Assembly: GCA_001304015.1 (NCBI GenBank)
Contig: LJUY01000006.1
Location: 22,605 to 86,604 of the forward strand
Length of the DNA: 64,000 nt
Direction of reading: 5' to 3'
From: a candidate division Zixibacteria bacterium SM23_81
GTDB lineage: Bacteria; SM23-81
Part shown: positions 28,782-53,258 of the stretch, in pieces
Numbering within the stretch: the stretch's first letter is position 1
How the letters are laid out: each line of letters opens with the position of its first letter
Program-made: the position numbers and the translations under genes
Notes under the pieces: model-generated
Told to the model about the DNA's origin: nothing
The model's database searches: none
The model's input: only the letters and a program-made list of their open reading frames with translations

Positions 28782-29012
28782 TATAGATATTTCCGCTCGT
28801 GGGTTTCAGTATCCTTCACCAAGAGAATACTCGACCATCAGTTTCGGCTAAGAAAACGGCTTAATACTAGCCCTTCTGTCCATTTTAAAATAGTTATCGA
28901 GCCTTCATCTGTCAACCTCAATTTATCGTTCGTACGGATCTATGTGGCTCAGATACATATTGCAGAAACGATAAAAATAAGAAGTTACCTCAATTAGTGG
29001 AGCAAAAAGGCG

Positions 29013-29041
29013 TTGACAAGATCAGATTGTAGCAATATATT
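29013..29041 (+). promoter_or_regulatory. Candidate sigma-70 promoter (TTGACA-N17-TATATT)
   Basis: Exact -35 hexamer at 29013-29018 and a near-consensus -10 at 29036-29041 with a 17-nt spacer, about 280 nt upstream of the sulfotransferase start. Confidence 0.3.
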
Positions 29042-29323
29042 GATTTAATGTCGGGAAGGTGCGAATTTTTCCTCTCCTTTGCGTGACAAGCTAGACTAAC
29101 CCACCAAAGGGGATAGATCAATCATAGCCAGTCTGTTCTATATTCGAGCAAGGCCTTAGGAACTATCAGCATGAAGGAACCTCTACGAGTAATTTCTGTG
29201 GATAAAGGTCTTCGATTGGTTCTTCTGCAGAGTTTCTTGACGAAAGGATTCGTGCAAAAAACTTTAGAGAAGTACATATTTTGAACTTAAGACAACAGAC
29301 CACTTTCCTTAGGAGTAATTACT

Positions 29324-30364
29324 GTGGTGGACGTGTCCCCTTTGTTTTTGATAGGCGCACAGAGATCGGGCACCACTCTTATGCGCCTGATACTGAATGC
29401 CCATTCGCAGATAGCCATTCCGGAAGAAGGTACCTTTTTAATGCCATTATTAAAAAAAAGGTTACTTAAACGGGAAATATCGGGCCCTTTTCTGAAAACT
29501 CTCCTTAGTTATTTTGCCTTAAATCCGCAGTTTAAACTATGGGGACATGACTTCAGTGAATATTTTGCACAACTCTCTAAAAGAGGTAGGACTACTGTCC
29601 GTGAATTGATGAGCGGTATTTTTTCCGTCTATTCTGGCAGCGAAGGCAAAATAATATGGGGGGACAAAACTCCTTCCTTCTTCAGAAAGATCGACATCCT
29701 CTTCGCCCTATTTCCCAAGGCCAAATTCATACATATTGTTCGCGACGGTAGAGATGTTTTTGACAGCTGGAGAAAAATGGATCCTTCTAAAAACAACTCC
29801 CCTCTTATAGCCATAGACTGGAGTTATAAACTATTTAGAATTGAAAAATCCTTCACCAAGATACCCCCCGAAAATAGAATAACGATTCGATATGAAGATC
29901 TCCTTGAAAATCCAGAAAAAGCCATAAAATCAGTCTGTTCCCTTGCGGGAGTCGAATATGAGGCCACGATGTTGGAATTCCATCGAACTAGCCATAAGTA
30001 TATTGGCACACACCACTCCAAACTGATATTTAAGCCTTTAAGCAAGAACAACAGGTACAAATGGAAAAACAATTTGACTAACCGGGAGACAAGGAGCTTT
30101 ACCCTCCTGGCCAGATATTTTCTAAAGAAGTATAATTATGAAATCGAAGACACCGGGATGAACATTCCTGACATGCTTTCTATACTTAAGAACATCATTA
30201 TCGGAGTTCCCATGAGAATAATGAGTGTATGGCGAGCAAAGAGATCTTTAGAAACAATCCTTAAGAAAGGGCAACTGATTGATTCCATGAAAGTTGGTGA
30301 ACTACCACGAGGCGTCCGAAAGAGGGCGGGGGGGATTAAAAACGCACCGGGGAAGGAGATCTGA
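29324..30364 (+). CDS. PAPS-dependent sulfotransferase (Sulfotransfer_3-like)
   Basis: 5'-PSB motif GAQRSGTTL and 3'-PB motif IVRDGRDVFDS. GTG start with an AGGAG Shine-Dalgarno 8 nt upstream. AT-rich gene. Confidence 0.8.
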   Translation: MVDVSPLFLIGAQRSGTTLMRLILNAHSQIAIPEEGTFLMPLLKKRLLKREISGPFLKTLLSYFALNPQFKLWGHDFSEYFAQLSKRGRTTVRELMSGIFSVYSGSEGKIIWGDKTPSFFRKIDILFALFPKAKFIHIVRDGRDVFDSWRKMDPSKNNSPLIAIDWSYKLFRIEKSFTKIPPENRITIRYEDLLENPEKAIKSVCSLAGVEYEATMLEFHRTSHKYIGTHHSKLIFKPLSKNNRYKWKNNLTNRETRSFTLLARYFLKKYNYEIEDTGMNIPDMLSILKNIIIGVPMRIMSVWRAKRSLETILKKGQLIDSMKVGELPRGVRKRAGGIKNAPGKEI

Positions 30365-30778
30365 GGATACCCTGAAGTTGGCAAAAGGGCTTCCAGTCAC
30401 ATTAAGAAAAAGGTAAGAGAAAAAGCCTCTCAAGCACAAACGAATGGGAATGACCGCTTGGGTCAAATCATTGGCAATTCAGCCGGTTCCTGAGTGGTTT
30501 TCCAGATCGCTTTTTGAACCAGTTGGAATCCCCATTTTGACAGCTTAAGCCATTAGAGCAATCCAAGCTGGTGTAAACCGCCACGGCTTTTCCTCGGCAA
30601 AAGACTGGCTACTGCCATCTGATGAACTTCTTCTTCACGACCTTGCATCCTTGACCTCCCACATAAATATAAAAAAGTCACCAGTAAGACTTTTCGAGGA
30701 TATTTTCAAAGAGCCAATTCGTATCGCCGATGTCCTGTTATTTAACAATAAGCTGTTGAAAAGAGGCACATATATATT

Positions 30779-31741
30779 ATGGAAGACATTCAATGCATTT
30801 TCTGCAACAGGAGCAGTGACCGAATTGTCATAGTAGAAAATGGATACACGGGCAGAAAATGTCCTCAGTGCGGTTTGATATTCATTTCACCACGGCCGAC
30901 TTTGGCCAAAATTTTGAATCTCTACGGTCACGATCAGACCGTCGTATCCGCTAGATCACATATATCAGCGGCTTTTAGCAAAAGGCTCTATGCAAAGCAC
31001 AATGTTCGTATAATTAAAAAATTTATAAAAACGGGTTCTATGCTGGAAATTGGTGCTGGTGCAGGATATTTCTTAGATGAAGCCAGAAAAGAGGGATTTG
31101 AAGTCTATGCGAATGAGCTCAATACTATTCTAGCTAATTATATTGAAAAAGTATTAGCAATACCTTGTGAAAGTTCTCCTTTGGATATTTCTCTCTTTAA
31201 CGGGAAGAAATTTGACATTATTTATCATTGTAATGTCCTAAGTCACTTGTATAACCCAGTCGTGGAATTTCAAAAGATTAATGATAAATTGAAAAAAAAT
31301 GGATTGGTTGTATTTCAGACTGGAAACCTTGGCGATGTAAAAGAAAAGTATTTTAAATTCATTTCAAAATTTATGTATCCAGACCATTTATTCTTTTTTA
31401 GTGAGGATAACTTACGGGAGCTGCTGAGACGAACTGGATTTGAATTTGTAAAAATACACAGATATTCTATATTACCACAGTTGATGTTTTCTAAAATGGC
31501 AAGAAAGGTAATGAATTTCGTCAAATCTAAAGCCAGAGCTAAAAACTTGGATCAACATAATCCGACTGAAGTTCCATCTTTTAATGTCCCTCATGCTCAC
31601 AACAACGCTGTCCATTTCAAGCAATTTATTAAGAATGCATATAGTTGTATTCTCTATCTTATTCGTTATAAAATAGGATACGTAATACCCAAAAAGCAAC
31701 GACCACAAACAGTTATTGTTGTTGCTCGCAGAACCAATTGA
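30779..31741 (+). CDS. Class I SAM-dependent methyltransferase with N-terminal Zn-ribbon
   Basis: CIFC...CPQC pair followed by SAM motif I LEIGAGAGYF and an acidic post-I residue (LDEARKEG). Confidence 0.75.
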   Translation: MEDIQCIFCNRSSDRIVIVENGYTGRKCPQCGLIFISPRPTLAKILNLYGHDQTVVSARSHISAAFSKRLYAKHNVRIIKKFIKTGSMLEIGAGAGYFLDEARKEGFEVYANELNTILANYIEKVLAIPCESSPLDISLFNGKKFDIIYHCNVLSHLYNPVVEFQKINDKLKKNGLVVFQTGNLGDVKEKYFKFISKFMYPDHLFFFSEDNLRELLRRTGFEFVKIHRYSILPQLMFSKMARKVMNFVKSKARAKNLDQHNPTEVPSFNVPHAHNNAVHFKQFIKNAYSCILYLIRYKIGYVIPKKQRPQTVIVVARRTN

Positions 31742-32100
31742 TGCCTCGCTTGACATTTGCTGGAGATATTGTAAGAACTTTTTCCCTACGGTATATGTTG
31801 TTCCTGTTGCCGTGGAAAGGCAAGACTTGGGATCTTATACCGGCCGTCAATCATATGGGCACTGGATGGCTGCAGGCCATCTGTCGGGAGTTATATTCCA
31901 GATACTACTGGATCGTTAAAAAGTTTGGAGAGGCTACCGGCATACCAGTCCTTATGAACACGTCTTTCAACCTACGCGGTAAGCTCATCGTAAGCAGTCC
32001 CGCCGGTGCGTGCAATACGTTTTCCAAAAGCGAAATAGACATATTGGTAATGAGCCAATATTTGGTAAATAAGGAGGCTTTTCAACGAATCGCCAACTAA
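31716..32100 (+). pseudogene. Carbamoyltransferase (NodU/CmcH family) C-terminal remnant, frameshifted
   Basis: IPAVNHMGTGWLQ...GIPVLMNTSFNLRG...IVSSPAGACNTF matches the conserved carbamoyltransferase C-terminal domain. The preceding segment (VVPVAVERQ) sits in a different frame, with a shift near 31835. The ~450 N-terminal residues are absent. Confidence 0.55.
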
Positions 32101-33514: not shown

Positions 33515-35440
33515 TTACTTGACCAGCAGCATCTTACAAGTTTCCCTGAAATCGCCAGCCTCAAGTGAGCAGAAGTACACTCCACTGGCCACTTCCTCCC
33601 CTCGACCGTTTCTTGCATCCCAAGATATCTGGTACTCCCCTGGTGGCTGATTCTCCTCCACCAGGGTTTTGACCGACTGTCCCAAGGAATTGTATATCCT
33701 TACCTCTACCGGCGCCTCCACAAGCAGATGATAACGAATGTTGGTGGAACCATTGAAGGGATTGGGAAAATTCTGCCACAGCTTATACTTTGAGGGCCTC
33801 GAACCTGATAAGTTGTCAGCAGATCTTTTCAGCTCTATAGCCGTCAGGGAGTGGGCGGGAAATGTATACGAAAAACTCGTATCAACAGAAGCCAAGGTTG
33901 AGTGTATGATGGTGACTGTATTGGGATCGTCCTCGTTATGAGCGGTGATGTCGGGCCCATTCAGAGTCCAAATGTTGGCCTCAGGGTGGGGCTCAAATCC
34001 CACCACCTGGATGGCCACCTCGACATCTTGTTCAAGTTGTTTATTGATCACCATGATATGCAGTTTTTTCTTTGCGGTGTCAATTGAGGTCGCGACGGAC
34101 AGTTCTGGGACTGCGGGCATGGCTGGAACGCAAGAAACTCTAACGGTTGAAAATGTGTTGCAGTCGATGGTGTTGTCAAGCAGCATATCGCCGCAATGTT
34201 CTGTGAACATCTGCTGTGCGTAGTACATTGGCCTTGCGAACCTGCGTGGCGGCCCCCAAGCGTAGCCGATGTGCCCGTGATAGACGTTGGAGCAGAGCAT
34301 CCAGCTGCAGACGAACTCGATATCCCATTCGGGGCCGTCTTCCAAAAACATCATCAGCAAATCGGCGTAATAGAGGCCCGCCAGAAGGCTGACAGCTGAC
34401 TGTTTGCCAGTTTTCTCAAAGTTAATTCCGTTGCTTCCAGCCACAATGCTGATATATGGATCAGCCTCTTGGTTAATAATCTCTCTCAACTCGCCGATGT
34501 CAATGGGCGCCTGTTGTGTTGCCGCCATGCAACCGCGGTATATATCCTCTATATCGTCGGGTAAAGCGTATGTACCAGGGTATCCCGTGTGGATGTCCAA
34601 AAAATCCATATAGCCGCAGGCGATGCTCACCAGGGCGGCGTTCCATTCCAAAGAATCCCCAGATTGAATAAAGTGGGGAATGACGACTCCAGAAACCCCG
34701 ATCTTGATCGTCGGGTCAACGGCTTTCATGGCTTCGGAGAAAGCACAGAAATCTTGTGCGTAGGTGATGACGTCCATGCCCACTTTGGGATTGTGTATCT
34801 CGTCGCCAACAACCCAGTATTTAACGCCGTATGGTTCAGGATGTCCGTTTTCGGCTCTTACTGCTGCCCAATCCGTGCCCCCTCTGGGGTTGGTGCCGTC
34901 GTTGGGCGCATTGCAGTATTCCACCCAATTGGTGGCTCTTTCTATTTTTTGTGTCAGGGGTGCTGTTTTGGATAGGTCACCGTCCATAATGCCAGAGACG
35001 GGATTAACGCAGATAAACGCCTCTGCCCCGATCATTTCGCACAGGGCCATGTGTTCGTCTGTGCCGTAGTGGAAATTACGGTCGGGTTGGCTGGGGCGTG
35101 AGTCTGGTCTGAGGTTATGGGGGCCGATGCCGTCTTCCCAGAAGTATTCATTGGCACCCCCTGGAAATCGCATTATGGTGGGTCGCAGGCCCAATACCAG
35201 CTCCTCGGCCTCTGGCGCAAATCCCCAGACCGTAAGGCTGTCGGGCTGTGTCATATCCAGCAGTCTGTTGCCGTGATGATGGGGTTGCGAGTTGCCCAGG
35301 AAAAGCGGATTAACAGGGCCAAGATACTCATTGGCATAGACGGAAATGGTGGCCGCCGATAACGGGGTCACTAACGGAGGGCAGAAAAACAGGAGAGATG
35401 GGAGAAAAAAGAAGAGAATCGCCTGTGTTGTCCTCCTCAT
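33515..35440 (-). CDS. Secreted TIM-barrel-like glycoside-hydrolase-like protein with T9SS C-terminal sorting domain
   Basis: Signal peptide after the ATG at 35440 (GGAGG Shine-Dalgarno 5 nt upstream). A central ~450-aa domain with alternating beta/alpha character (WVVGDEIHN region). The C-terminal NFPNPFNGSTNIRY...VRIYNSLGQSVKTL...ASGVYFCSLEAG...KMLLVK is a canonical T9SS CTD. The hydrolase family is not assignable by eye. Confidence 0.65.
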   Translation of the reverse strand: MRRTTQAILFFFLPSLLFFCPPLVTPLSAATISVYANEYLGPVNPLFLGNSQPHHHGNRLLDMTQPDSLTVWGFAPEAEELVLGLRPTIMRFPGGANEYFWEDGIGPHNLRPDSRPSQPDRNFHYGTDEHMALCEMIGAEAFICVNPVSGIMDGDLSKTAPLTQKIERATNWVEYCNAPNDGTNPRGGTDWAAVRAENGHPEPYGVKYWVVGDEIHNPKVGMDVITYAQDFCAFSEAMKAVDPTIKIGVSGVVIPHFIQSGDSLEWNAALVSIACGYMDFLDIHTGYPGTYALPDDIEDIYRGCMAATQQAPIDIGELREIINQEADPYISIVAGSNGINFEKTGKQSAVSLLAGLYYADLLMMFLEDGPEWDIEFVCSWMLCSNVYHGHIGYAWGPPRRFARPMYYAQQMFTEHCGDMLLDNTIDCNTFSTVRVSCVPAMPAVPELSVATSIDTAKKKLHIMVINKQLEQDVEVAIQVVGFEPHPEANIWTLNGPDITAHNEDDPNTVTIIHSTLASVDTSFSYTFPAHSLTAIELKRSADNLSGSRPSKYKLWQNFPNPFNGSTNIRYHLLVEAPVEVRIYNSLGQSVKTLVEENQPPGEYQISWDARNGRGEEVASGVYFCSLEAGDFRETCKMLLVK

Positions 35441-35830
35441 GGGAGCCTCCTGAATGGGTAGATGGTGATAGAAAACCATAGGAACCCATTCAAGCTTATT
35501 GCAAGAATCAAGCCAGAAAAAAAAGATACCCAGGAATCCTCCTAAGTATCATTTTTTTACTTTATTACCTCGATGTAAGGACGATAATATTTAAGAAACT
35601 CAGTCCAGATCTGGTTAAGTTATAAACAAAATGACCTCCAATGGATTAGATATGATAATCATGGGAAGATCCGCAAGAAAAAACAGTTCTCCTCCAAGAG
35701 GTTAACGCCCTGACGAAAAATTCACCCAATGTTCAATTGCTGAAAGCCTTGAATGTAAATTGCACATTGATAAATTGAGGCCAGAAATGACCATAACTGG
35801 TCAGATACTTTCACGCAAAGCAGCTCACTT

Positions 35831-36679
35831 TTACTTTTCAATCATGGGCGAAGGTACAAAACTCGCCGCCACCTCAGCGCCAGTTACGACGACTACTCCG
35901 GGGTTGGAAGCGGCGATCTTTATAAAATTTCTAAAAGCCGCTAATCTCCCCTTTTCCTTCCCTAACATCCAGGGATGGAAACCGATGGCAAAACATTTTC
36001 CCAGATGTTCAGGCTGCAAATACATCAACCACTGAGAAAGCATCTCTGGGGGTGATATACCTTTTCTAATATACATCCCATCAGTGCTTACTAGAGGGAT
36101 TCTCAGTATCTTCTCTCCGCGCCCTGGTGTTTCTCCCGCACATTTGATCCAATGCAGATTCTGCCAGGAGGATTTGGACGCTCTATCAATGTTATATCTA
36201 AAGCCAAGCGTGATCAGAATTTTCATCAAGGCATGTGACCAAGCGCCGTATGGGGAGCGAAAGCCCCAAAGCTCTACTGTGAATTTGCGTCTGAAGAACT
36301 CCTTTGCCTTGTGAATATCATAACGCAAATCATCTGCTGACATTTTAAGCGGTGCAACATGTCCAAAAGTATGGCAGGCTATTTCATGGCCATCCCTGAT
36401 GAGGTGTTCGATGGTTTCAGGATATTTCTCAGCAACATGCCCAACGCAATTCCAGGTACTCTTCACTCTATACTCACAGAGAATGCGCAAGATTTCATGA
36501 AAGACGTCAGATGACAATTCGCCTTGCTCGTTCCCAAACTCACGTTCGTAGTCGAAAGACAGAACGAGCCGGATCTTGCCGGAATCCTCGGCTGTCGGCC
36601 GGATGAGTTCGTGGCGCACAGATATATTCCGTATCTTCCGCCTCAAACGGTAAGGAATGAAACCGAACTGTTCAAACAA
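35831..36679 (-). CDS. Polysaccharide deacetylase (NodB-homology domain)
   Basis: NodB-domain motifs IACHTFGHV, a LVLSFDY segment and a RSPYGAW block. Confidence 0.8.
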   Translation of the reverse strand: MFEQFGFIPYRLRRKIRNISVRHELIRPTAEDSGKIRLVLSFDYEREFGNEQGELSSDVFHEILRILCEYRVKSTWNCVGHVAEKYPETIEHLIRDGHEIACHTFGHVAPLKMSADDLRYDIHKAKEFFRRKFTVELWGFRSPYGAWSHALMKILITLGFRYNIDRASKSSWQNLHWIKCAGETPGRGEKILRIPLVSTDGMYIRKGISPPEMLSQWLMYLQPEHLGKCFAIGFHPWMLGKEKGRLAAFRNFIKIAASNPGVVVVTGAEVAASFVPSPMIEK

Positions 36680-36844: not shown

Positions 36845-37711
36845 TCATATCAACCCTGGTGCCCAATCGAGAAGAATTTCAATAAGATGTTGCTGCTTAC
36901 AAAGCGGCGTAAAGGTATGATCTGTATCTTGAATAACTTCTATCCTTAATTTGCCATATTTCTTCAACTCATGAATCTCATCTCCGAGTCTGCTTTGTAG
37001 GTAGTCCAAACCTCGATCGCCTCCGGAGTAAATAAAGAGAGGGCTAATGCCGCGGGCTGACAATACCTGCAAATCTGCTACCAGATTGTTCGCTCTTGAA
37101 GACATATCTCTTTTACGAACAAACAAGCGCTTTATCTGACTCGTGGTTGATCGTATAATCTGCTGGTAACGAGACTTCCCTTTCATCGCTCTTCGCCAAC
37201 TTTTGAGACTAAACAAGGCACTTCTCCAGTAATGGCGAGCTACTCTGTCATATACCACAGAAGACCGCATCTCTTCATTATCATCAAAATACACCGGAGC
37301 ATTGATGGGAACAACACCCACAACTCGAGGATCACACAAAGCCGCTTTAAATGATATAACTGCTCCAGAACATATGCCAATGAGAATAAATCGATCAATG
37401 CCTCTTGTCGCATTCAGATAGTTCAGCGCTTCCTGGGTTTCGTTAATCGCTCTCTCATCGGAAAGAGATTCAACCTCACTTGCTCTGCTGTCTCCAATTC
37501 CAGAGAAGTCAAATCTCAATACAAAGAACCCTTCCTCAGCCAACTTCCGCGCCGCTTTCACGTAGAGACGATGGGGACCGACTCGATGCAAGAATCCAGA
37601 ATTGAGAAAGACAAACGCAGGAAAGTCATTGCCACTGAAAACCGGAGTTGGCTCGGTAATGATACCAACCAAAGATTTGGTTTTCCCAAAAAGCACAGCT
37701 TTGTCTCTCAT
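36845..37711 (-). CDS. Alpha/beta-hydrolase fold protein (Cys at nucleophile elbow)
   Basis: LRFDFSGIGDS, then nucleophile-elbow sequence GICSG (G-x-C-x-G). Paralogous to the upstream gene and overlaps it by 4 nt. Confidence 0.7.
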   Translation of the reverse strand: MRDKAVLFGKTKSLVGIITEPTPVFSGNDFPAFVFLNSGFLHRVGPHRLYVKAARKLAEEGFFVLRFDFSGIGDSRASEVESLSDERAINETQEALNYLNATRGIDRFILIGICSGAVISFKAALCDPRVVGVVPINAPVYFDDNEEMRSSVVYDRVARHYWRSALFSLKSWRRAMKGKSRYQQIIRSTTSQIKRLFVRKRDMSSRANNLVADLQVLSARGISPLFIYSGGDRGLDYLQSRLGDEIHELKKYGKLRIEVIQDTDHTFTPLCKQQHLIEILLDWAPGLI

Positions 37712-38526
37712 GGGAACATCTCAGAAATCCAGGAGACCACAAACTGCAGTACTTTAATAGGTACCATGCCCTGACCCCAGTCATCCCTTTCAATCCAAGG
37801 TTCAAAACCAGGGATGTGTTTATACCGCAAAGAAACACCAATGCTGTTTAGATGCTCACGAAACCTTCCATCCTCACTCACGTCACTGCTTTCGATGAAC
37901 AGTATTTTGCTAGCCGGTTTCTGCCGAATTGCGTAAAGGTCCAACTTTTCAAGATCTTTCAGCATAGAATCTGGAAGGGGAAACCCAAGCGCTTCTCTGT
38001 AACTTTCTCCTTCGGAGAAGGACTTTACCCCAGGAAAAAAGTTCCTTATCTTTTCCTGATGCAAGGTTGTCAGCTCCTCAATGTATTTCCTTCCATTGAT
38101 AACCGGATTCCAAAGGACTATACCATCAATATCACCTCGTTCGGCTCCAGCCAGCATCGCAAGGTTGCCCCCTAAACGAAGGCCCGCTAAACAAATCTGA
38201 TTCAGATCGCTTCCGCCTTTTAGTTCTTCTACCGCCGTTGATATATCGGCAAGCCATTGGCGAATTTCGCCCTGGTCGCTATCGCCCTCAGAATCACCAC
38301 ATCCGTAATAATCAAACCGTAAGGTGTGAAAACCAGCCGAAGAAAGAAGCATAGCTAATCGTACAAAGGCACGATGAGAACGGATGTAGTCTTCCCCCAT
38401 GGGATAACACAGAATAACTCCAACATTGCGAGCTTTTTCGAGTTGTGGCGGGTGATAAATCCCAAAAAGCGATCTGGCTGAATTCCCGAAATAGAATGGC
38501 TCCATCATATCATACTCAGATATCAC
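37708..38526 (-). CDS. Alpha/beta-hydrolase fold protein, paralog (Arg at nucleophile-elbow position)
   Basis: LRFDYYGCGDS aligns with the partner. The corresponding elbow reads GLRLG (G-x-R-x-G) by hand alignment. Confidence 0.7.
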   Translation of the reverse strand: MISEYDMMEPFYFGNSARSLFGIYHPPQLEKARNVGVILCYPMGEDYIRSHRAFVRLAMLLSSAGFHTLRFDYYGCGDSEGDSDQGEIRQWLADISTAVEELKGGSDLNQICLAGLRLGGNLAMLAGAERGDIDGIVLWNPVINGRKYIEELTTLHQEKIRNFFPGVKSFSEGESYREALGFPLPDSMLKDLEKLDLYAIRQKPASKILFIESSDVSEDGRFREHLNSIGVSLRYKHIPGFEPWIERDDWGQGMVPIKVLQFVVSWISEMFP

Positions 38527-39214
38527 TCCGGTTGTTGGAATCTCCTACTGTCATTCCAGTAAAAATATAGCCTCGATGAAAGAAAAACTTACCCTTATGG
38601 CAAGTTCCCTTCGCAAAAAAGAGATCGGTATCAGCCATATATCTGGCTTCGAACTCACCAATATTTGGATTCACAGAAATGGTTATATCATGAAAATTCA
38701 CCCATCTTTTGCTGGTTGTATATTGACATTTATAAAAGCATTCCTTTGCACTAAAGATAAGAGCGATATATTCTTGCTGAACATCGAGAGGCAAAGAATG
38801 TATCCATGACAACTCTTGTTTGGTGCATATTGCTTTCCAATAATCCCGCTCTAATCTGCCTACACACTCCGCATCGAATCCCACGCTTTCGATCTCTGTT
38901 TTCCGGGCAAGGGCTACTCCACAGTACCCCTCGGTATGGGAGATGCTGCCAATGATACCGGGCGGCCAAATAGGACTTCTGTCAGTGGCCATCAATATGG
39001 GAAAATTTCTTATGGCCACTTGGGCTAAGGCCCTGCGAGCACAGAGACGTCCAGCGATGAATTCTTGTTTTCTTTTGGGCACGGCGTTGCATATGAACGC
39101 CTCTTCTTGGGGATAAAGCGTCCCTTCGCTGAATACAGGATTTGCCTCCTCTGTTATGACTTGATCAGGAAAAAGGCAAGCTATGATGGTATGATCGCAC
39201 TTTTCTGTTAACAT
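38516..39214 (-). CDS. 4'-phosphopantetheinyl transferase (Sfp/EntD type)
   Basis: GSISHTEGYCGVALA and VGFDAE core motifs. Confidence 0.8.
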   Translation of the reverse strand: MLTEKCDHTIIACLFPDQVITEEANPVFSEGTLYPQEEAFICNAVPKRKQEFIAGRLCARRALAQVAIRNFPILMATDRSPIWPPGIIGSISHTEGYCGVALARKTEIESVGFDAECVGRLERDYWKAICTKQELSWIHSLPLDVQQEYIALIFSAKECFYKCQYTTSKRWVNFHDITISVNPNIGEFEARYMADTDLFFAKGTCHKGKFFFHRGYIFTGMTVGDSNNRSDI

Positions 39215-39216: not shown

Positions 39217-42200
39217 TTACTTCTTCTGCAATTGTCTTTCCAAATTGGCCGACATTTGGCCCAAAGTTTGATTGACAAATTCTGCAAAAGGCACTTCTAT
39301 ATTAAGATTCTCTTCTATCAATGAGATTGCTCGAATGACCAAAAGCGAATGTCCTCCCAGATCAAAGAAATTGTCATGAAGCCCGACTTTATCAACGCCT
39401 AATACACCTCTCCAGATCTCAGCGATCTTTTTTTCCATGGAACTACGTGGCGCGATGTAATCCAACTTCTCTATTTCGTGACCCTCGCTCAATTGACGCA
39501 AAAGCTGGTAATCAATTTTACCATTAGGAGTGAGAGGAATGGCATCAAGTGGAATAAATTGAGAGGGAATCATGTAATCAGGAAGCACCTCTCTCAAGAA
39601 ACGCCGTAAGGACAAAGAGGAGACAAGCTCGTCACAGATGATATATGCGATTAACCTTTTATCTCCCTGGCCAATATCGGATGTTACTACAACGCAATCT
39701 TTGATGACTTCATGCTTGGACAGCGCTGATTCTATCTCACCTAATTCAATACGAAATCCCCGGATCTTCACCTGCTGGTCGATGCGCCCCAAAAACTCGA
39801 TGTTCCCATCGGGCAAATAGCGGGTCAAATCCCCTGTCTTGTACAAACGTGCGCCTGGCTTCTCATTGAAGACGTTGGGGACGAACTTCTCCGCTGTCAA
39901 CTCTGGATGCTTTAGATAACCCCTGGCCAGGCCCACACCTCCAATGTGCAATTCAGCCGGCACGCCAATGGGAACGGGTTGTAAATGGGCATCCAGCAGA
40001 AAAACTTGCGTGTTGCTAATAGGCCGACCAATAGGTGGCGTTCGCCTATCTTCTGCGCATTCAGCTACGGTTGACCAGATGGTATCTTCGGTGGGACCAT
40101 AGAGGTTAAAGATACGACGTCCCTTGATCCAGCGTGGAACGAGGTCTCCAGGACAGGCTTCTCCAGCTACATTGAGTATTCCCAACGCCGGTAATTTCTC
40201 GGTCGGTAAGGCACCCAGAACCGATGGGGTGAGTACCATACAAGTTATGCTCAAATCTTGCATTAACTTTATCAGGGCGGGGCCGGGTAGCAGGGTCTCC
40301 TCCTTCCCCAGGCAGAGCGTTGCTCCAACTCGCAAAGCCAAAACGATATCGAAGATTGATGCATCAAAACTAAAAGAAAAAAACTGCAGGACACGGTCGG
40401 TAGAGCCGAGCTTAAATGTCCTCATATGTGCGTCAGACACATTACATAGACCACCGTGCGTCACAAGGACGCCTTTGGGTTTACCCGTAGATCCCGAGGT
40501 GTAAATCACATAGGCCAGGTTGTCGGGCATCACACCGCTGATGGGATTCTTCTCGCTCAGTTCATGGATGGTGGCCCAATCTGTATCCAAGCAGACCACA
40601 CGTGCCCTATGCTCAGGCAATCCAGCGAGCAACTTTTCTTGAGTCAACAGCACCGGCACTTGGGAGTCTGACAGCATGAAGGCCAGGCGTTTCTTGGGAT
40701 AGGCCGGGTCTAAGGGCATAAACGCTCCGCCAGCCTTGAGCACACCGAGTAGTCCCACTATCATCTCCAATGACCGCTCCATGCATATCCCCACGGGCAC
40801 CTCTGGTCCCACGCCAAGATTCCGCAAGTGGTGCGCCAACTGATTGGCACGTGCATTCAAGGCACGATAGGTCAACTGCTCCCCTTCATAAACCACACCG
40901 ATGGCGTCGGGCGTCCGCCCCACCTGATCTTCAAACAGATGGTGGAAACACGTATTCTGGGGATAATCCGCCCCGGTATCGTTCCATTCCACGAGCATTT
41001 GGTGACGCTCTGTGGTTGAGAAAAGCGGAAGGTCCCAGATAGGCCGGTCTGGATGAGCAACAACGCCTTCCAGCAGAATCTGGTATTGTTTCGCCATCCG
41101 GGCAATAGTGGCAGCATCAAATAAGTCTGTATTGTACTCCAACGACCCGATCAGCCCTTCTCCTGTATCCTTCACGATCAGAGTCAAGTCAAACTTCGCT
41201 GTTCCTGTGTGGACCTCCTCCGCGGAGCCAAACACCAGTCCCGGGAGCTCCACATCCTGCCTGGGAGCATCCTGCAGAACAAACATCACCTGAAACAGCG
41301 GATTGCGGCTCATATCCCGCTCCGGCTGTATTTCCTCAACAAGTTTCTCAAAGGGCAGATCTTGATGAGCATAAGCCCTCAGTGCTTCTTGGCGCACTCG
41401 ATCTAACAATTCCCGAAAGGTTGGCCTTCCCGAGAGATCGGTCCGCATCACCAGTGTGTTGACGAAGAAGCCTATCAATCTCTCCAGCTCGGCCCGGTTA
41501 CGATTGGCGATAACCGAGCCCACAACGATGTCTTCCTGGCCGCTATAACGAGCGAGCAAGGTCACGAAGACCGCCAGCAGAGTCATAAACAGACTGGTCC
41601 CTGAACGTTGACTCAGGGCTCTTAGATTTCCTCTCAGTTGAGAATCGATCTCAAGGTGCTCGATACTCCCCTGGAAGGTCTGAACTGCCGGTCGAGGACG
41701 ATCAGTGGGAAGCTCCAGCACAGGGATATTGGCAAGATGATTCTTCCAGTAGGCCAGCTGTGCCTCCAACACATCTCCCTCTAAACAACGCCGTTGCCAA
41801 ATAGCATAGTCTGCATACTGAATGGGCAGTTCGGTCAGCGGTGAGGGTTTTTTGGAAGAGAAAGCCTCGTAGAGTGCCGCCAACTCCCGAAAGATGATTC
41901 CCAGAGACCAACCATCGGAGATAATGTGGTGCATGGTCACAAGCAACACATGCTCCTTTTCATCCAGACATAGGAGCTTGGCGCGCAGTAGCGGCCCACG
42001 GGTTAGGTTAAAAGTCCGCTTAGCCTCCTCAGCAGCCAGCCTTTGCAGCTCAGCCTCCTGTTCTGATCCCGGGAGTTCCCGAAGGGCAATCACTGGCAGG
42101 GTTAGGTTCTGAGCAGGGGTCACAACCTGAAATGGTTGTCCATCCAGCGCCACAAAAGCAGTCCGCAAGATTTCATGACGCCGCACGATTTCTCCGAGAG

Positions 42201-42501
42201 TCCGCTCGAGCGCCGCCACATCGAGCGAACCTCTCAGGCGCAAGTGCACAGGCATGTTGTAGAAAGGATTGTCAGAGACCAATTGTTCGAGAAACCACAA
42301 CCCCTGTTGGGAAAAGGAGGCCAACACGAACTTTCTATGTTCACCTAAAAGAGTGAGAATCTCTGCCTTACGTTTTGAAAGTTCCCTCCGCGAAGATGGC
42401 GTGAGAACTCCTTCAGGTGCACGACAGTGTACTTTACCACTCTCGGTCCAGAGTTCTACTCCCTTTTGTAAAAGGTTGGCTAGAAAGCTAACGGTATTCA
42501 T
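39217..42501 (-). CDS. Non-ribosomal peptide synthetase, module 2 (docking region-C-A-T)
   Basis: Condensation motif HHIISDGWS. Adenylation cores LTYRALNARANQLA, YTSGSTGKPKGV, FDASIFD, NLYGPTE, YKTGDL, GRIDQQVKIRGFRIELGEIE. Thiolation domain FFDLGGHSL. No TE or reductase domain. Confidence 0.95.
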   Translation of the reverse strand: MNTVSFLANLLQKGVELWTESGKVHCRAPEGVLTPSSRRELSKRKAEILTLLGEHRKFVLASFSQQGLWFLEQLVSDNPFYNMPVHLRLRGSLDVAALERTLGEIVRRHEILRTAFVALDGQPFQVVTPAQNLTLPVIALRELPGSEQEAELQRLAAEEAKRTFNLTRGPLLRAKLLCLDEKEHVLLVTMHHIISDGWSLGIIFRELAALYEAFSSKKPSPLTELPIQYADYAIWQRRCLEGDVLEAQLAYWKNHLANIPVLELPTDRPRPAVQTFQGSIEHLEIDSQLRGNLRALSQRSGTSLFMTLLAVFVTLLARYSGQEDIVVGSVIANRNRAELERLIGFFVNTLVMRTDLSGRPTFRELLDRVRQEALRAYAHQDLPFEKLVEEIQPERDMSRNPLFQVMFVLQDAPRQDVELPGLVFGSAEEVHTGTAKFDLTLIVKDTGEGLIGSLEYNTDLFDAATIARMAKQYQILLEGVVAHPDRPIWDLPLFSTTERHQMLVEWNDTGADYPQNTCFHHLFEDQVGRTPDAIGVVYEGEQLTYRALNARANQLAHHLRNLGVGPEVPVGICMERSLEMIVGLLGVLKAGGAFMPLDPAYPKKRLAFMLSDSQVPVLLTQEKLLAGLPEHRARVVCLDTDWATIHELSEKNPISGVMPDNLAYVIYTSGSTGKPKGVLVTHGGLCNVSDAHMRTFKLGSTDRVLQFFSFSFDASIFDIVLALRVGATLCLGKEETLLPGPALIKLMQDLSITCMVLTPSVLGALPTEKLPALGILNVAGEACPGDLVPRWIKGRRIFNLYGPTEDTIWSTVAECAEDRRTPPIGRPISNTQVFLLDAHLQPVPIGVPAELHIGGVGLARGYLKHPELTAEKFVPNVFNEKPGARLYKTGDLTRYLPDGNIEFLGRIDQQVKIRGFRIELGEIESALSKHEVIKDCVVVTSDIGQGDKRLIAYIICDELVSSLSLRRFLREVLPDYMIPSQFIPLDAIPLTPNGKIDYQLLRQLSEGHEIEKLDYIAPRSSMEKKIAEIWRGVLGVDKVGLHDNFFDLGGHSLLVIRAISLIEENLNIEVPFAEFVNQTLGQMSANLERQLQKK

Positions 42502-45500
42502 AGCTCTAACTTCTCAAAGTCCTCACGAGAGGTGATGGTGTCGATTTCAGTAGCCGACTGAGCCTTGAGGATGTCTCCATTAGCCTGGGTAAAGCCGGCT
42601 ATCGTGGGTGCCTCAAATACGCTACTGAGAGGAAGCTCCACCTTAAAGGTGTCTCGGATGTGGGACACCACCTGCATGGTAAGCAATGAGTGTCCTCCCA
42701 ACTCAAAGAAATTATCGTGCACACCGACGCGTTCAACCCCGAGTACTTGGGCCCAGATTCTGGCCAGAATTTCCTCAACTGGATTTCGTGGAGCAACAAA
42801 GTCCTTTTCCAATTCAGGTCTTATTCGCTCCGGTGCAGGAAGCCGCTGACGGTCTACCTTCTTGTTGGGCGTTAGGGGAAGCGCCTGCAGCATCATGAAA
42901 GAAGAGGGAACCATATAATCTGGCAATTTCTTGCGCAGGAAACCACTCAATTCATTGATTGTGGGTGTCTGCTGCTGCTGTGGAACCACATAGGCCACCA
43001 GGCGTTTGTCACCAGGCTGATCCTCCCGAGCCATAACAACGGTCTCTCGCACAGCAGGGTGTCCTACCAGTACAGTTTCAATTTCTCCCAACTCGATGCG
43101 GAAACCGCGAACCTTTACCTGATAATCAAGGCGACCGATAAACTCGATGTTGCCGTCGGGCAGGTAGCGGGCCAGATCCCCAGTTTTGTACAGGCGCGCT
43201 CCCGGCTCCGCGCTGAAGGGGTTGGGGATGAACTGCTCAGCCGTCATCTCAGGGTAGTTCAGATAGCCTCGGGCAAGGCCAGCGCCGCCCAGGTACAGTT
43301 CGCCAAGAACTCCAATGGGAACAGACTGGAGATGTCGGTCCTGTAGATAGACTTGCGTATTAGCGATGGGGCGGCCGATGGGCGGTGATCCCGTGGCCTC
43401 CCCCCTCACCAAGGCAAATGTAGAATAGGTGGTGTCTTCCGAGGGGCCGTAGAGATTAAAGACCTGTTGAATCGTGTTCTGCTGATAGATCTGCTGCACA
43501 AGATGTTTCTGGAGCGGTTCCCCAGCCAAGTTCACGGTGTGCACCGAGGCAGGGATGCTATCGGCTCTCACCAACTCGGCTATCGTGGAGGGAACCGTGT
43601 TGATCAGGGTTACATCATTGGCGGCGGGTAAAGTGCGCAAATGTAATGCATTCTTGACCAAAATAACCTTGCCACCCCAGCTCAGAGGCACAAACTGCTC
43701 AAAGATCGACAGGTCAAAGCAGATTGATGTAGACAGCAAGACGCTAGCAAAATCCTCTGGAGCAAAGACTTCTCTCGCCCAGTTCAACATCACCACGGTG
43801 CTATGATGCTCGATACCCACCCCTTTAGGCCTGCCGGTAGACCCCGAGGTATAGAGCACGTAGGCCATGTTATTGGCTGTCACATCAGTGACGGGGGTTC
43901 GCGCGCTCTCGCGAGCAATAATCTCCCTATCTGCATCTAGGCATACCACACTTGTTTCCTCTTTGGAAAACCGATGAGCTAACCGCTGTTGGGTCAATAG
44001 CACTGGTGCTTGGGTGTCCTCCAGCATGAAGGCCAGACGCTCTTTTGGATACCATGGATCAAATGGAACGTAGGCTCCACCGGCTTTGAGAATACCAAGT
44101 AGCCCCACCATCATCTCTACCGATCTCTCGACGCAAATACCCACTAATACCTCAGGCCCTACACCCAGCTTTTGCAGGTAGTGCGCCAGTTGATTGGCTT
44201 GGCTGTTTAGCTCTCGGTAGGTCAGCTGCTCATCTTCAAAAACCAAAGCGATGGCGTCCGGAGTCTGATCCACTTGATCTTCAAACAACTGATGGATACA
44301 CTTTTCCTCAGCATACTCTCTATGAGTGTCGTTCCAGTCTAATATCAACTGATGTCTCTCGGCCTCGGTCAGCAAAGACAATTCCGAAAGCCGTTGCTGT
44401 GGATTCTCTACAATGCCTTCCAAGAGGGTTTGCAAATGCCCCAGCATGCGAGCAATGGTAGCGTCGTTGAAGTAATGTCGATCGTATCCAATCTCCAGCA
44501 AAAGTTCTGGCTCTGAATATCCGGACAGTACCAAGGGATAATTCGTCTGACCGGTGAACCGAACTTCTCGCTTCTCCCAACCACCACCCTCCGCCTGCAA
44601 AATAGAATGAAATGTGAAGTTCTCGAACACTACCAGGCTTTCAAATAATGGTTTACCCGCGGGTATGTCACTCCATTCCATAATTCTTGGCAGTGGCGTG
44701 TGCTCATACTCTCGTAATGCCACCCACTGCGCCCGAAGTTCCTTCAACAATAGCAGTAACGACTTTTCAGGAGACAGGGATGCCCGCATTGGAAGGGTGT
44801 TGAGAAGTATTCCCACCATGGATTCAATTCCCTCCAGAGCCGAATGACGACAGGCTCTTGTGGCTCCAAAAACCACATCCTCTTCGCCGCTATAGCGGCT
44901 CAGGAGCAGGACCCAAGCTCCTTGTATGAGGGTGTTGAGGGTTAATTCATGTCGTTCAGCCAGGGATCGCAATGCTGTCGTCATGGTTTCCGTGAGTCGA
45001 ATTCCTTTCTCTTTATAATCCCCTTTCTCAACAGACTTATCACCATGGACGCGGTCTACGACCAAAGGTGTGGGAGCGGTGAAGCCTTTGAGCGTACGTC
45101 GCCAGAAAGTCTCTGCCTCAGTCAGGTCCTGTTCCTCCAGCCAATTGATGTAGTCCCGATAAGGAGGGGCATGTTTGAGGGACAAGTCCTGGTTCTGAGA
45201 AAAAGCTTCGTAAAAGGCAAAGATCTCTAACCAGAGTAAATAGGCAGATCGACCATCTAACAAGGCATGGTGCAAGGTCCAGATGAACCGGTAGTCGGCC
45301 TGGCCCACTCGAAAAAGCGCCAAGCGCACAAGGGGGGCCTCGGTGAGTTCGAAACTACGACATCGATCCGTCTGGAGATATGACAAGAGCCGGCTTTTCT
45401 GCTCCTCCGTAGGAAGATCCCGCCAGTCTTGTTCTTCGAATGGGAGGGTAACATGCGTGTGTACGTCCTGAAGAGGCTCCTTGAGCCCCTCCCAACGGAA

Positions 45501-45704
45501 ACTTGTTCTTAAGATGGCGTGCCGTTCCGCAACTCGCTGCCAGGCCCTCTTGAAGGCAGAGACGTTTAGGTCTTCATGGAAAGCACAGATAAACTGCACA
45601 TGATATACGCCGGACTGTCGCGTATTTAGGCTATGGAAGAGCATGCCCTGCTGTACGGGTGAAAGGCGGTATGAATCTTCGATATTCTCTGTTTTCATTC
45701 GCAT
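42498..45704 (-). CDS. Non-ribosomal peptide synthetase, module 1 (starter C-A-T)
   Basis: N-terminal C domain (LSPVQQGMLF, HHALLDGRS). A-domain cores (LTYRELNSQANQLA, YTSGSTGRPKGV, FDLSIFE, NLYGPSE, YKTGDL, GRLDYQVKVRGFRIELGEIE). T domain FFELGGHSL. Overlaps module 2 by 4 nt. Confidence 0.95.
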   Translation of the reverse strand: MRMKTENIEDSYRLSPVQQGMLFHSLNTRQSGVYHVQFICAFHEDLNVSAFKRAWQRVAERHAILRTSFRWEGLKEPLQDVHTHVTLPFEEQDWRDLPTEEQKSRLLSYLQTDRCRSFELTEAPLVRLALFRVGQADYRFIWTLHHALLDGRSAYLLWLEIFAFYEAFSQNQDLSLKHAPPYRDYINWLEEQDLTEAETFWRRTLKGFTAPTPLVVDRVHGDKSVEKGDYKEKGIRLTETMTTALRSLAERHELTLNTLIQGAWVLLLSRYSGEEDVVFGATRACRHSALEGIESMVGILLNTLPMRASLSPEKSLLLLLKELRAQWVALREYEHTPLPRIMEWSDIPAGKPLFESLVVFENFTFHSILQAEGGGWEKREVRFTGQTNYPLVLSGYSEPELLLEIGYDRHYFNDATIARMLGHLQTLLEGIVENPQQRLSELSLLTEAERHQLILDWNDTHREYAEEKCIHQLFEDQVDQTPDAIALVFEDEQLTYRELNSQANQLAHYLQKLGVGPEVLVGICVERSVEMMVGLLGILKAGGAYVPFDPWYPKERLAFMLEDTQAPVLLTQQRLAHRFSKEETSVVCLDADREIIARESARTPVTDVTANNMAYVLYTSGSTGRPKGVGIEHHSTVVMLNWAREVFAPEDFASVLLSTSICFDLSIFEQFVPLSWGGKVILVKNALHLRTLPAANDVTLINTVPSTIAELVRADSIPASVHTVNLAGEPLQKHLVQQIYQQNTIQQVFNLYGPSEDTTYSTFALVRGEATGSPPIGRPIANTQVYLQDRHLQSVPIGVLGELYLGGAGLARGYLNYPEMTAEQFIPNPFSAEPGARLYKTGDLARYLPDGNIEFIGRLDYQVKVRGFRIELGEIETVLVGHPAVRETVVMAREDQPGDKRLVAYVVPQQQQTPTINELSGFLRKKLPDYMVPSSFMMLQALPLTPNKKVDRQRLPAPERIRPELEKDFVAPRNPVEEILARIWAQVLGVERVGVHDNFFELGGHSLLTMQVVSHIRDTFKVELPLSSVFEAPTIAGFTQANGDILKAQSATEIDTITSREDFEKLEL

Positions 45705-45824: not shown

Positions 45825-46457
45825 CTATGCCTCTACAAACTCAAGATGCCCTTGACCTGTTAGGGTATTGAGATCAATGTCAGCGACACACTGGACTTTA
45901 ACGTAATTAAGCGTCAGACCCCCCACAAGATGAGCATTCCCAGTTTGGTTATCGAAATCGGCCTGGTTTAAATCGGTCGTACCATGATCAAGTCTAACTC
46001 CCAGCTCTGTCCCCCCCCTTGTATCCGTGAACTTAACAAGGATATATCCTCGATCGATAGCTTCTCTAAAGAGTTTAACAGTCTTTTCAGGTCGCAGAGC
46101 TATTTCCACTGGATGATCGCCTTCTGAAAGAAATTGTCCCAAATCGTCCCTCGGGTCTTTCTTTTTATTTTTCTCTGCCTCATTTACTTTCAAGGCTTTT
46201 TCCTTATCTCCTTCCTCTCTCTTTTGGGCCATCTCCTCCATTTTCTTTCTGAGACTGAGTGGCCGCATATCCGTCCAGACTTTCTTTATGAAAGCCAGGC
46301 ACTCATCTTTAGACCCACTTTGACCAACCTTTTTCCAGCCAAGAGGCGGATTTCCTTTATGCTCAAGCCAAATAGAATACTGCTCTTCTTGATTTACGAC
46401 GACTTCGTATGTCGTCGTGTCCTCCTGGTTGTCTCTATTCATCTCGCCATCCTCCAA
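45825..46457 (-). CDS. MbtH-like protein fused to a C-terminal domain of unknown function
   Basis: The N-terminal ~70 aa (YEVVVNQEEQYSIWLEHKGNPPLGWKKVG...CLAFIKKVWTDMRP) match the MbtH signature. A K/E-rich linker and a ~100-aa beta-rich C-terminal domain follow. Confidence 0.75.
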   Translation of the reverse strand: MEDGEMNRDNQEDTTTYEVVVNQEEQYSIWLEHKGNPPLGWKKVGQSGSKDECLAFIKKVWTDMRPLSLRKKMEEMAQKREEGDKEKALKVNEAEKNKKKDPRDDLGQFLSEGDHPVEIALRPEKTVKLFREAIDRGYILVKFTDTRGGTELGVRLDHGTTDLNQADFDNQTGNAHLVGGLTLNYVKVQCVADIDLNTLTGQGHLEFVEA

Positions 46458-48116: not shown

Positions 48117-48129
48117 TCAATCTGTGGAC

Positions 48130-48765
48130 TTAGAGATACCCGAGATCCTCTAGCCTTCTCTGGATCTTCTCTTCCTCTTCCTGGGAATAAACCTCATCCT
48201 CCTCCAGCGAAGCCATCTGGTCTGCCACCGTTGACAGGGCCGGAACGTAACCCAATTCTTCTAGCTTCCGGATGACCGTATCTCGACATTCCTCTGGGCC
48301 AGTCTTATCGACCTTTAGGAGAACTTCTGGATGAAGCGGCTCTTCATAAGGATCGTCCACCCCAGTGAAGTCCTTAATCTCTCCCGCCCTGGCCTTCTTG
48401 TACATGCCCTTCACATCTCTTTGCTCACAGACCGCCACAGGGGCAGCCACAAAGACTTCCACAAAGTTGGTGGTCTCCCTTCTGGCATTGTCTCTTGCCT
48501 CTCTATATGGAGAGACAAAAGAAACCAGCACAGCTACCCCATTTCGACTTAACAGCTTGGCTACGAAAGTGACTCGCTCGATGTTTTTGTCTCGGTCCTC
48601 TTTGGAAAAACCCAAATCGCGGGTCAGGCTCTGTCTGACGATGTCTCCATCCAGACGCTCGACCCTCAAATTTCTCCTCTTCAACTCTTCGGCCACCAAA
48701 TCGGCCACCGTCGTCTTGCCGGAGCAGGGAAGCCCTGTGAACCACACGGTACATCCTGGTTGCAT
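48130..48765 (-). CDS. cysC: Adenylylsulfate (APS) kinase
   Basis: P-loop GLPCSGKTT, LDGDIVRQSL and a ~40-aa acidic C-terminal tail. Confidence 0.9.
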   Translation of the reverse strand: MQPGCTVWFTGLPCSGKTTVADLVAEELKRRNLRVERLDGDIVRQSLTRDLGFSKEDRDKNIERVTFVAKLLSRNGVAVLVSFVSPYREARDNARRETTNFVEVFVAAPVAVCEQRDVKGMYKKARAGEIKDFTGVDDPYEEPLHPEVLLKVDKTGPEECRDTVIRKLEELGYVPALSTVADQMASLEEDEVYSQEEEEKIQRRLEDLGYL

Positions 48766-48784
48766 TTTAGGATCCTCCTTGAAC

Positions 48785-50170: not shown

Positions 50171-50457
50171 AAAGCATCTCCTTTCATCAGATAGTTAAAA
50201 GAGTAACTCTCATCCTCTCAGAATTCACAAAACCTTCATTTTGCTCAGAAAACTCTAGCACACGCGACAAGTTACTCTAAAAAGGATTTCTTGCTTCTTA
50301 TTTTCTTAACAAGCTTTCCTCGTTGTAAACCTTTCCCACCGATTCTCCGGTGCGACAAGAAAATCGAACCTCTTGTTTCTTCCCTGTGGCATGAAGGGTC
50401 TTTCTACGAAAACCTCGAGAACTTCCTAATGATCCAGCCAGGAAGTGAATATTCTGG

Positions 50458-53146: not shown

Positions 53147-53258
53147 GAGGTATCACTGCGTTTCCACTTATGGTTCAAGGTAACATTTTTAGGCACAGCA
53201 GTTGCTTTGATTCCCCTGAATGCGGTGAGAGAACTTGCTTTTTCGACTTTCTCTGCCT

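Follow-up and report, generated by a model that had tools for sequence, protein, structure and literature searches.

A tandem of Cys- and Arg-elbow alpha/beta-hydrolase-fold proteins as a candidate two-part off-loading unit beside a non-ribosomal peptide synthetase

Neighbouring pairs of unlike alpha/beta-hydrolase-fold proteins are catalogued in polysaccharide loci as exosortase A system-associated hydrolases 1 and 2 (hydr1_PEP and hydr2_PEP), and descriptions of the canonical system include an acyl-CoA ligase together with an acyl carrier protein (ACP). A Cys nucleophile in a G-x-C-x-G motif has been reported for SyrC and CmaE, which belong with CouN7 and CloN7 to a second set of relevant proteins; to our knowledge none of these four needs a partner with Arg at the nucleophile elbow or sits in a polysaccharide cluster. 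They are stand-alone alpha/beta-fold enzymes that move an acyl or aminoacyl group from a carrier protein to another acceptor: CmaE and SyrC shuttle aminoacyl groups off thiolation (T) domains, and CouN7 hands over a pyrrole acid unit tethered to a carrier protein when the pyrrole-based product is assembled (PMC8748450). Here we describe a pair of hydrolase-fold genes in a 64-kb stretch of DNA from candidate division Zixibacteria bacterium SM23_81 (contig LJUY01000006.1; the whole stretch of 64,000 nucleotides is called the window). H1 denotes the hydrolase-fold protein with a Cys elbow and H2 the one with an Arg elbow. At a rough probability of 0.55, we propose that H2 and H1 act in trans as a two-part unit that off-loads the carrier-bound product of an adjacent C-A-T / C-A-T non-ribosomal peptide synthetase (NRPS), the chain perhaps being passed to a glycan.

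Both genes are on the minus strand. H2 (37708..38526) encodes an acidic 272-aa alpha/beta-hydrolase-fold protein without a nucleophile (pI 5.1), the putative carrier-facing adaptor, and H1 (36845..37711) a basic 288-aa protein of the same fold with a Cys nucleophile (pI 9.5), the putative acyl-enzyme-forming subunit. The initial annotation had described two overlapping alpha/beta-hydrolase genes 3′ of an NRPS and a 4′-phosphopantetheinyl transferase (PPTase); the open reading frames (ORFs) lie exactly there and overlap by 4 bp (ATGA). The fold assignment is given by a match to Pfam Hydrolase_4 (PF12146) at gathering score and by the canonical β-strand/helix topology. The Sfp/EntD-type PPTase (38516..39214, minus; Pfam 4PPT_N and ACPS, NCBIfam PptT/Npt-like) is translationally coupled to H2, the GTG start of H2 overlapping the PPTase stop codon (38516..38518). 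The length of H2 is counted from this GTG; an in-frame ATG at 38508, at which an 84%-identical homologue (P0002) begins, is likely the true start. The two NRPS proteins were defined with Pfam and NCBIfam and also lie on the minus strand. Module 1 (42498..45704) has the order C-A-T, for condensation, adenylation and T domains, and module 2 (39217..42501) has a TubC_N docking domain followed by C-A-T, so ending in a T domain. Pfam identified no thioesterase (TE), reductase (R) or terminal C domain in either protein. The lid of H1 is strongly basic, with a net charge of +14 over residues 153-212 against a family mean of +10.4. Since neither the H1 nor the H2 N-terminus contains a hydrophobic stretch resembling a signal peptide, both proteins look cytoplasmic.

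The nucleophile elbow of H1 is G112-I-C114-S-G116 (37364..37378, minus; Cys114 codon 37370..37372) and the equivalent segment of H2 is G115-L-R117-L-G119 (38170..38184, minus; Arg117 codon 38176..38178). In phmmer alignments to solved serine esterases (9pjb, 8b4u, 9h0z and 7q4h), C114 and R117 fall on the Ser of G-x-S-x-G: ‘ligiCsGa’ of H1 sits over ‘viGlSmGg’ of 9pjb, and ‘laGlRlGG’ of H2 over ‘llGlSlGG’ of 9h0z and 7q4h. The two proteins are themselves homologous (BLASTP E=1e-7, 29% identity over 95 aa), and when their family alignments were compared with hhalign the GiCSG column matched the GLRLG column with 98.7% probability. AlphaFold2 models agree with this assignment. C114 and R117 are thus the true elbow positions, and the contrast drawn in the initial annotation between GICSG, with Cys, and GLRLG, with no nucleophile, is confirmed. 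In the alignment with 9pjb, the Ser, Asp and His of that esterase are matched by Cys114, Asp232 and His265 of H1, and H1 looks catalytically competent from these residues. Asp232 (37016..37018, minus) is at the canonical acid position after strand β7, aligned with the HGxxD Asp of 9pjb; His265 (36917..36919, minus), the proposed general base, lies in a D-H-T-F motif after strand β8 and is aligned with the DHTF His of 9pjb. The H2 family alignment shows no conserved Asp after β7 and no conserved His after β8. The initial annotation could have fallen on a Ser or Cys at the elbow of both proteins, or on an Asp/His pair intact in neither; it stands on both counts because H2 carries Arg at its elbow, without His or Asp, while H1 has Cys, His265 and Asp232.

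Conservation was assessed in two samples, namely 120 database homologues of each protein and 80 genome loci recovered with the H2 profile and aligned by MAFFT --auto. The genome loci come from many phyla (Anaerolineae, Binatia, Calditrichota, KSB1, Cytophagia, Acidobacteriota, Myxococcota, Planctomycetota, Gemmatimonadota and Chloroflexota, as well as Alpha-, Beta- and Gammaproteobacteria). The elbow Arg of H2 is present in all 120 close homologues and in 78 of the 80 genome loci, the other two having Gly. In those two (L036 and L057) the H2 elbow reads G-L-G-L-G and the partner H1 still has Cys; these H2 copies could be decayed or could function differently. H1 has Cys at its elbow in 108 of 120 homologues (Ser in 10) and in 78 of 79 genome loci, and His265 is kept in 118/120 and 78/79, respectively. 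Rhodanobacteraceae homologues of H2 (n=120) have GAR[LI]G in all but one. A search of 1.84 billion cluster representatives with the H2 profile gave 4,427 at E≤1e-30, and among the best 150 of these, 137 of the 145 newly returned representatives carry GxRxG. The H2 family thus comprises more than 4,000 clusters at 50% identity from many phyla; the closest genome homologues of H2 itself are from Anaerolineae, Caldithrix and KSB1. The Cys/Arg pattern is far above chance and, judged from these alignments, represents a conserved design and not a decayed paralogue. An Arg that is invariant at the usual nucleophile position argues for a selected, non-nucleophilic role rather than loss of function. 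The idea of an active enzyme paired with an inactive paralogue therefore holds for the Cys/His/Asp set of H1 and the missing triad of H2; the view of H2 as a dead copy does not, given its invariant Arg.

The arrangement of the genes is equally constant. H1 follows H2 in immediate tandem in 76-78 of the 80 loci, with a median gap of ~2 bp from the end of the H2 ORF to the start of the H1 match. Of 78 loci, 32 have a co-directional NRPS T domain no more than 300 bp upstream of H2, 57 have one within 1.2 kb, and 62 have an A or C domain within 10 kb. Natural fusions, accepted only from called proteins confirmed by motifs and Pfam, place H2 directly behind carrier domains. P0260 (1409 aa) has the order TubC_N-C-A-T-H2, P0262 is C-A-T-H2, and P0060 is A_C-T-H2, with GGHS at residue 147 and GLRLG at 314; P0380 and P0255 are polyketide synthases (PKSs) ending in KR-ACP-H2. 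At least 15 further representatives have a GG[HDN]SL carrier motif ~170 residues ahead of GxRxG. Long open frames spanning T and H2 in the high-GC loci L032, L046 and L050 were rejected as fusions, the T-domain and H2 matches being in different frames. At two of the loci (L051 and L053), and among the cluster representatives in at least 10, H2 and H1 also occur as one chain whose N-terminal half carries GxRxG and whose C-terminal half carries GxCSG. Two such proteins are annotated in RefSeq, from Mycetohabitans rhizoxinica (WP_013428943.1, 617 aa) and Burkholderia gladioli BSR3 (WP_013700104.1). We also note P0251 (1184 aa), which contains two tandem H2-H1 units (GLRLG at 134, GLCSG at 427, GVRFG at 749 and GLCAG at 1029).

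The fusions fix the order as carrier, then H2, then H1. Because H2 is fused behind carrier domains and none of the best 120 H1 homologues contains a carrier domain, H2 stands where a thioesterase would be and has H1 as an obligatory neighbour. The initial annotation had suggested that the pair could supply the missing off-loading step of the NRPS, and this idea is strongly supported by architecture: the synthetases lack a release domain, a T domain is upstream of H2, H2 is found C-terminal to NRPS and PKS modules, and H2 is joined to H1. We regard the off-loading role, taken by itself, as probable.

One further fusion, the metagenomic protein P0342 (734 aa), has the order ACP-sulfotransferase-H2, which recalls the ACP-ST-TE (ST, sulfotransferase) off-loading arrangement of CurM; the non-nucleophilic H2 domain of P0342 stands in place of the TE. 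H2 might be a catalyst in its own right, of a non-canonical kind (Arg-assisted epimerisation, cyclisation or decarboxylation) like the triad-less BotH, with H1 acting afterwards. BotH is among the fold matches of H1, and other polar H2 residues are as strictly conserved as Arg117 (E46, Y47, H51, R52, D94, E101, H156, E178 and W244). We consider catalysis by H2 improbable, as the family has no conserved general base near the canonical site and we found neither precedent nor literature for an Arg at the elbow.

The best NCBIfam match of H1 is TIGR03100 (hydr1_PEP, exosortase A system-associated hydrolase 1), at 98.8 bits against a cut-off of 168.45. That of H2 is TIGR03101 (hydr2_PEP, exosortase A system-associated hydrolase 2), at 103.6 against 202.75 and over profile positions 2-148 only. 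Homologues from Dyella, Variovorax and Terriglobia and the fusion proteins behave likewise, scoring 56.7-149.3 bits with TIGR03100 and 90.8-127.8 bits with TIGR03101, all under the cut-offs. The elbow preference of each profile was probed indirectly, by scoring point variants of H1 and H2. TIGR03100 favours Cys (98.8 bits versus 91.8-93.1 for the Ser, Ala, Gly and Asp variants) and TIGR03101 favours Arg (103.6 bits versus 99.6-100.4 for Ser, Cys, Gly and Ala), from which the Cys/Arg dichotomy would be an old hallmark of the whole hydr1/hydr2 superfamily. A tblastn search of plasmids and a Dyella-seeded homologue search retrieved no TIGR03101 member above cut-off and gave only proteins named ‘alpha/beta hydrolase’. 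The exosortase-associated profiles that the initial annotation had in mind for comparison are thus the best NCBIfam matches and favour the elbow residues of H1 and H2, with both scores far below the cut-offs.

The window pair is an NRPS-coupled variant of the catalogued hydr1_PEP/hydr2_PEP pair that is tied to polysaccharide loci. In both cases unlike hydrolases are neighbours, here with the 4-bp overlap, and Dyella homologues within a genuine XrtA locus carry GARLG and GLCSG. The differences lie in the surroundings. Among the ORFs scanned in the window, no exosortase or PEP-CTERM family reached its cut-off; the XrtA/PEP-CTERM families gave only sub-threshold matches, to an XrtA-type deacetylase and to the stp3 glycosyltransferase family 4 (GT4) protein. 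Unlike the ligase and ACP of the canonical system, the loader in the window is a two-module NRPS with its own PPTase.

Comparison with TE domains is also informative. SulM and ObiF have TE domains with a Cys nucleophile. H2, in the natural fusions, occupies exactly the C-terminal, post-carrier position of the type I TE domains of NRPSs and PKSs. Unlike these, H1 and H2 belong to the Hydrolase_4 / feruloyl-esterase-like branch and do not match PF00975, and they divide the nucleophile-bearing and the carrier-adjacent function between two polypeptides, with an Arg whose invariance is not that of random loss. For release that depends on Cys, SulM offers a precedent (PMC11298585), and a triad-less, inactive TE0 domain is present in PacP (PMC8748450). 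The closest structures and sequences are serine esterases of the feruloyl esterase, PET46 and Est1E type (8b4u, 9pjb, 2wtm and 7wwh), which share the Hydrolase_4 fold and the RFDxxGxGxS motif. They have Ser-His-Asp, whereas H1 has Cys and H2 none of the three residues. The likeness of H1 to CmaE and SyrC is one of Cys-in-elbow logic. Two other assignments were rejected: the match of H1 to class III PhaC, a polyhydroxyalkanoate synthase, is too weak (E=0.0094, 15 bits) and nothing in the context speaks for it, and the match to dienelactone hydrolase, at 17.6 bits, falls short of the cut-off of 21.

As a free-standing alpha/beta hydrolase encoded beside an NRPS and a PPTase, H1 brings to mind a type II thioesterase, a comparison also raised by the initial annotation. 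It would then be a proof-reading enzyme that clears mis-primed T domains, and H2 an inactive duplicate. Neither protein matches PF00975 at E≤0.01, and two related loci have a separate PF00975 thioesterase gene right after H1. Such a role would moreover leave the NRPS module without a release step, and would not explain the invariant Arg, the H2-H1 fusions or the fusions with H2 at the TE position. We rejected this assignment as very unlikely.

In every annotated neighbourhood examined, the pair lies within a polysaccharide cluster. At one locus (L081) it is surrounded by Wzx, Wzz, a tyrosine kinase, GT2 and GT4 glycosyltransferases and Wzy; at another (L083) the order is PKS-NRPS, H2, H1, Wzx. 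A third (L084) has an MbtH-like gene directly before H2 and H1, then GT4s and a flippase beside lipid A genes, with no NRPS nearby. Variovorax paradoxus VAI-C has a co-directional series of NRPS-NRPS-PPTase-H2-H1-Wza-Wzc-initiating sugar transferase-glycosyltransferases-flippase, and the PPTase-H2-H1 order is common to the window, this strain and L082. In B. gladioli the H2-H1 fusion protein is encoded within a Wzx/Wzy/Wza/Wzc cluster. The Dyella pair lies inside a genuine XrtA/PEP-CTERM exopolysaccharide (EPS) locus whose export protein and chain-length determinant score above cut-off. In M. rhizoxinica the pair is fed by another carrier-loading route, in which an amino acid:[ACP] ligase with an ACP takes the place of an NRPS. 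We note that in this region of plasmid pBRH01 (L085, 7391..16791) the gene for the H2-H1 fusion comes after an operon that encodes an acyltransferase, the ACP, an acyl-CoA dehydrogenase-family protein, the amino acid:[ACP] ligase, a DUF1839 protein and a beta-mannosidase. Among 33 operonic genes 3′ of H1, flippases are the commonest, and deacetylases, GT4s, sugar epimerases, Wzc and pyruvyl transferase also occur.

This setting could be taken to mean that the pair belongs to the EPS pathway, where it would modify polysaccharides as an esterase or acyltransferase, for example by editing O-acyl groups, and that its place beside an NRPS is coincidental. Such a role fits the EPS-associated profiles nearest to H1 and H2, and also the Dyella XrtA locus and B. 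gladioli, where the pair is part of an EPS locus and no carrier protein is visible. It is contradicted by the proteins in which H2 is covalently joined to the carrier domain of an NRPS or a PKS, and the T domain directly upstream in most loci, the translational coupling to the PPTase and T-domain gene in the window and in Variovorax, and the cytoplasmic appearance of H1 and H2, with no signal-peptide-like N-terminus, also speak against it. We find it quite unlikely.

A simpler form of release has to be weighed as well, in which H1 as a Cys thioesterase would free a dipeptide acid by plain hydrolysis and H2 would provide docking or a scaffold and nothing more, so that the peptide stays separate from the glycan. 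The Cys/His/Asp set of H1 is of the hydrolase type, the closest H1 structures are esterases, dienelactone hydrolases with a Cys nucleophile are also among its fold matches, and the TE position of H2 is accommodated. What such release leaves unaccounted for is the association with polysaccharide clusters across phyla, even at loci without an NRPS, and the strict preference of H1 for Cys over Ser; Cys in place of Ser is seen more typically in transferases whose intermediate stays a thioester. On balance we judge hydrolytic release unlikely.

Returning to the two-part off-loading unit, we infer a plausible course of events from the residues, fold, synteny, fusions and context. H1 and H2 would form a physical complex in which H2, as a non-nucleophilic adaptor, faces the carrier protein. 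It may dock the holo-T domain, hold an anionic group through Arg117, or both; candidates for this group are the pantetheine phosphate, a carboxylate of the substrate or acceptor, and a phosphate of the substrate, the acceptor or a sugar. H1 would take over the chain as a thioester on Cys114, using Cys114-His265, together with Asp232 in this protein. Its basic lid may engage an anionic partner; H2 or the acidic carrier protein could play this part, as could the membrane surface or a sugar linked to a nucleotide or to undecaprenyl diphosphate. H1 would then hand the chain to a sugar amine or hydroxyl on a nucleotide- or lipid-linked glycan precursor, giving a peptide-decorated polysaccharide. 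Such a group is the most likely acceptor because the pair is found in Wzx/Wzy-type polysaccharide clusters and, in the window, is followed by a NodB-type deacetylase. The acceptor amine here could be exposed by that adjacent deacetylase or made by LegB/LegC-like enzymes. We hold the transfer to glycan less firmly than the off-loading itself, and would put it at somewhat below even odds.

Several observations weigh against this proposal. The acid of the H1 triad is not conserved family-wide: Asp232 is variable and Asp236 is found in 36 of the 80 genome loci, which makes the catalytic geometry uncertain outside this clade. The lid of H1 (residues 143-205) was modelled at low confidence. About a quarter of the loci have no carrier protein within 10 kb, as seen in Dyella at the XrtA locus and in B. 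gladioli at the EPS cluster, so the pair can work with distant loaders or without them. The gene 3′ of H1 is heterogeneous between loci, so no single conserved enzyme makes the acceptor. We found no publication on the function of the TIGR03100 and TIGR03101 families, on exosortase-associated hydrolases, or on an Arg elbow or GxRxG; Bcam1334, a TIGR03100 match, is simply listed in a Burkholderia cenocepacia biofilm EPS cluster (PMC3584217). Release by hydrolysis through H1, as set out above, is plausible enough to count here too.

The remaining genes near the pair are on the minus strand too. Directly 3′ of H1 is the NodB-type polysaccharide deacetylase (35831..36679, minus; Pfam Polysacc_deac_1, 69.3 bits), whose best NCBIfam match is the XrtA system polysaccharide deacetylase TIGR03006 (65.9 bits, under the cut-off). 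A deacetylase is in the same position at L001 and L082, and that of the window is a possible maker of a free-amine acceptor. On the other side of the NRPS genes is an MbtH-like protein, an A-domain helper (45825..46457, minus; Pfam PF03621, 62.8 bits), which is also encoded at L082 (2060..2692) and L084 (9146..9748). At all three loci the MbtH-like domain is fused to a C-terminal region of ~150 aa with a weak CBF_beta-like match.

Further upstream on the same strand is a glycan cluster with a LegB/LegC-like dehydratase and aminotransferase, a GT2, a GT39-like protein, a GT4, sulfate activation genes, three PF01663 proteins, a KamA-type aminomutase and an ATP-grasp ligase. The three PF01663 proteins, of the phosphodiesterase / alkaline-phosphatase superfamily, are paralogous (46755..48116, 48785..50170 and 50458..51981, within 46755..54410, minus). 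Their genes are interleaved with that of adenosine 5′-phosphosulfate kinase (48130..48765) and lie near sulfate adenylyltransferase (53259..54410). The sulfate activation genes make 3′-phosphoadenosine 5′-phosphosulfate, and protein-family scans of the window found no recognisable sulfotransferase alongside them. The KamA-family radical SAM aminomutase (within 58922..63237, minus) has 633 aa, of which ~215 form an N-terminal extension, the KamA match starting at about residue 216. It adjoins a protein with a flippase-like/LPG-synthase-type membrane domain (60789..61946) and the ATP-grasp ligase (61876..63237), and LegB/LegC-like genes flank the set, which looks like a branch of the same cluster for an amino sugar decorated with a beta-amino acid. 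The remainder of the window holds housekeeping and type IX secretion genes (DnaE, PorV, TonB receptors). There is an arabinofuranosidase with a type IX secretion C-terminal sorting domain (33515..35479, minus) and a PorV/PorQ-family gene (15161..16255, minus). Together with the taxa of the nearest H2 homologues, these features suggest an origin of the DNA in the FCB group, for example in KSB1 or Calditrichota. The GC content dips to 0.40-0.45 at 28000..32000, just beyond the glycan/NRPS cluster, compared with 0.50-0.59 in most of the window.

As far as we could find, an Arg ‘pseudo-thioesterase’ acting with a Cys transferase in polysaccharide clusters has not been described in the literature. 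More broadly, and only tentatively, the family may constitute a widespread chain-release system for NRPSs, PKSs and stand-alone carriers, in which an Arg domain at the TE position hands the chain to a Cys partner and peptides or polyketides are grafted onto polysaccharide precursors. Homologous operons are present in culturable V. paradoxus, B. gladioli, B. cenocepacia (Bcam1334), M. rhizoxinica and Dyella, which makes genetics and EPS chemistry feasible. The V. paradoxus operon has the locus tags INQ48_42255-42275, and the fused genes are BGLA_RS37610 in B. gladioli BSR3 and RBRH_RS20740 in M. rhizoxinica. For annotation, H1 and H2 proteins should be named neither ‘pimeloyl-ACP methyl ester carboxylesterases’ nor generic serine hydrolases. 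If the proposal is true, the long-annotated exosortase-A-associated hydrolases 1 and 2 would gain a testable function, and assembly-line enzymology a new release logic, in which an Arg ‘pseudo-thioesterase’ without a nucleophile shares the work with a Cys transferase. In many environmental phyla, the decoration of exopolysaccharides would also be tied to the synthesis of non-ribosomal peptides and polyketides, and peptide- or polyketide-decorated exopolysaccharides would be common.

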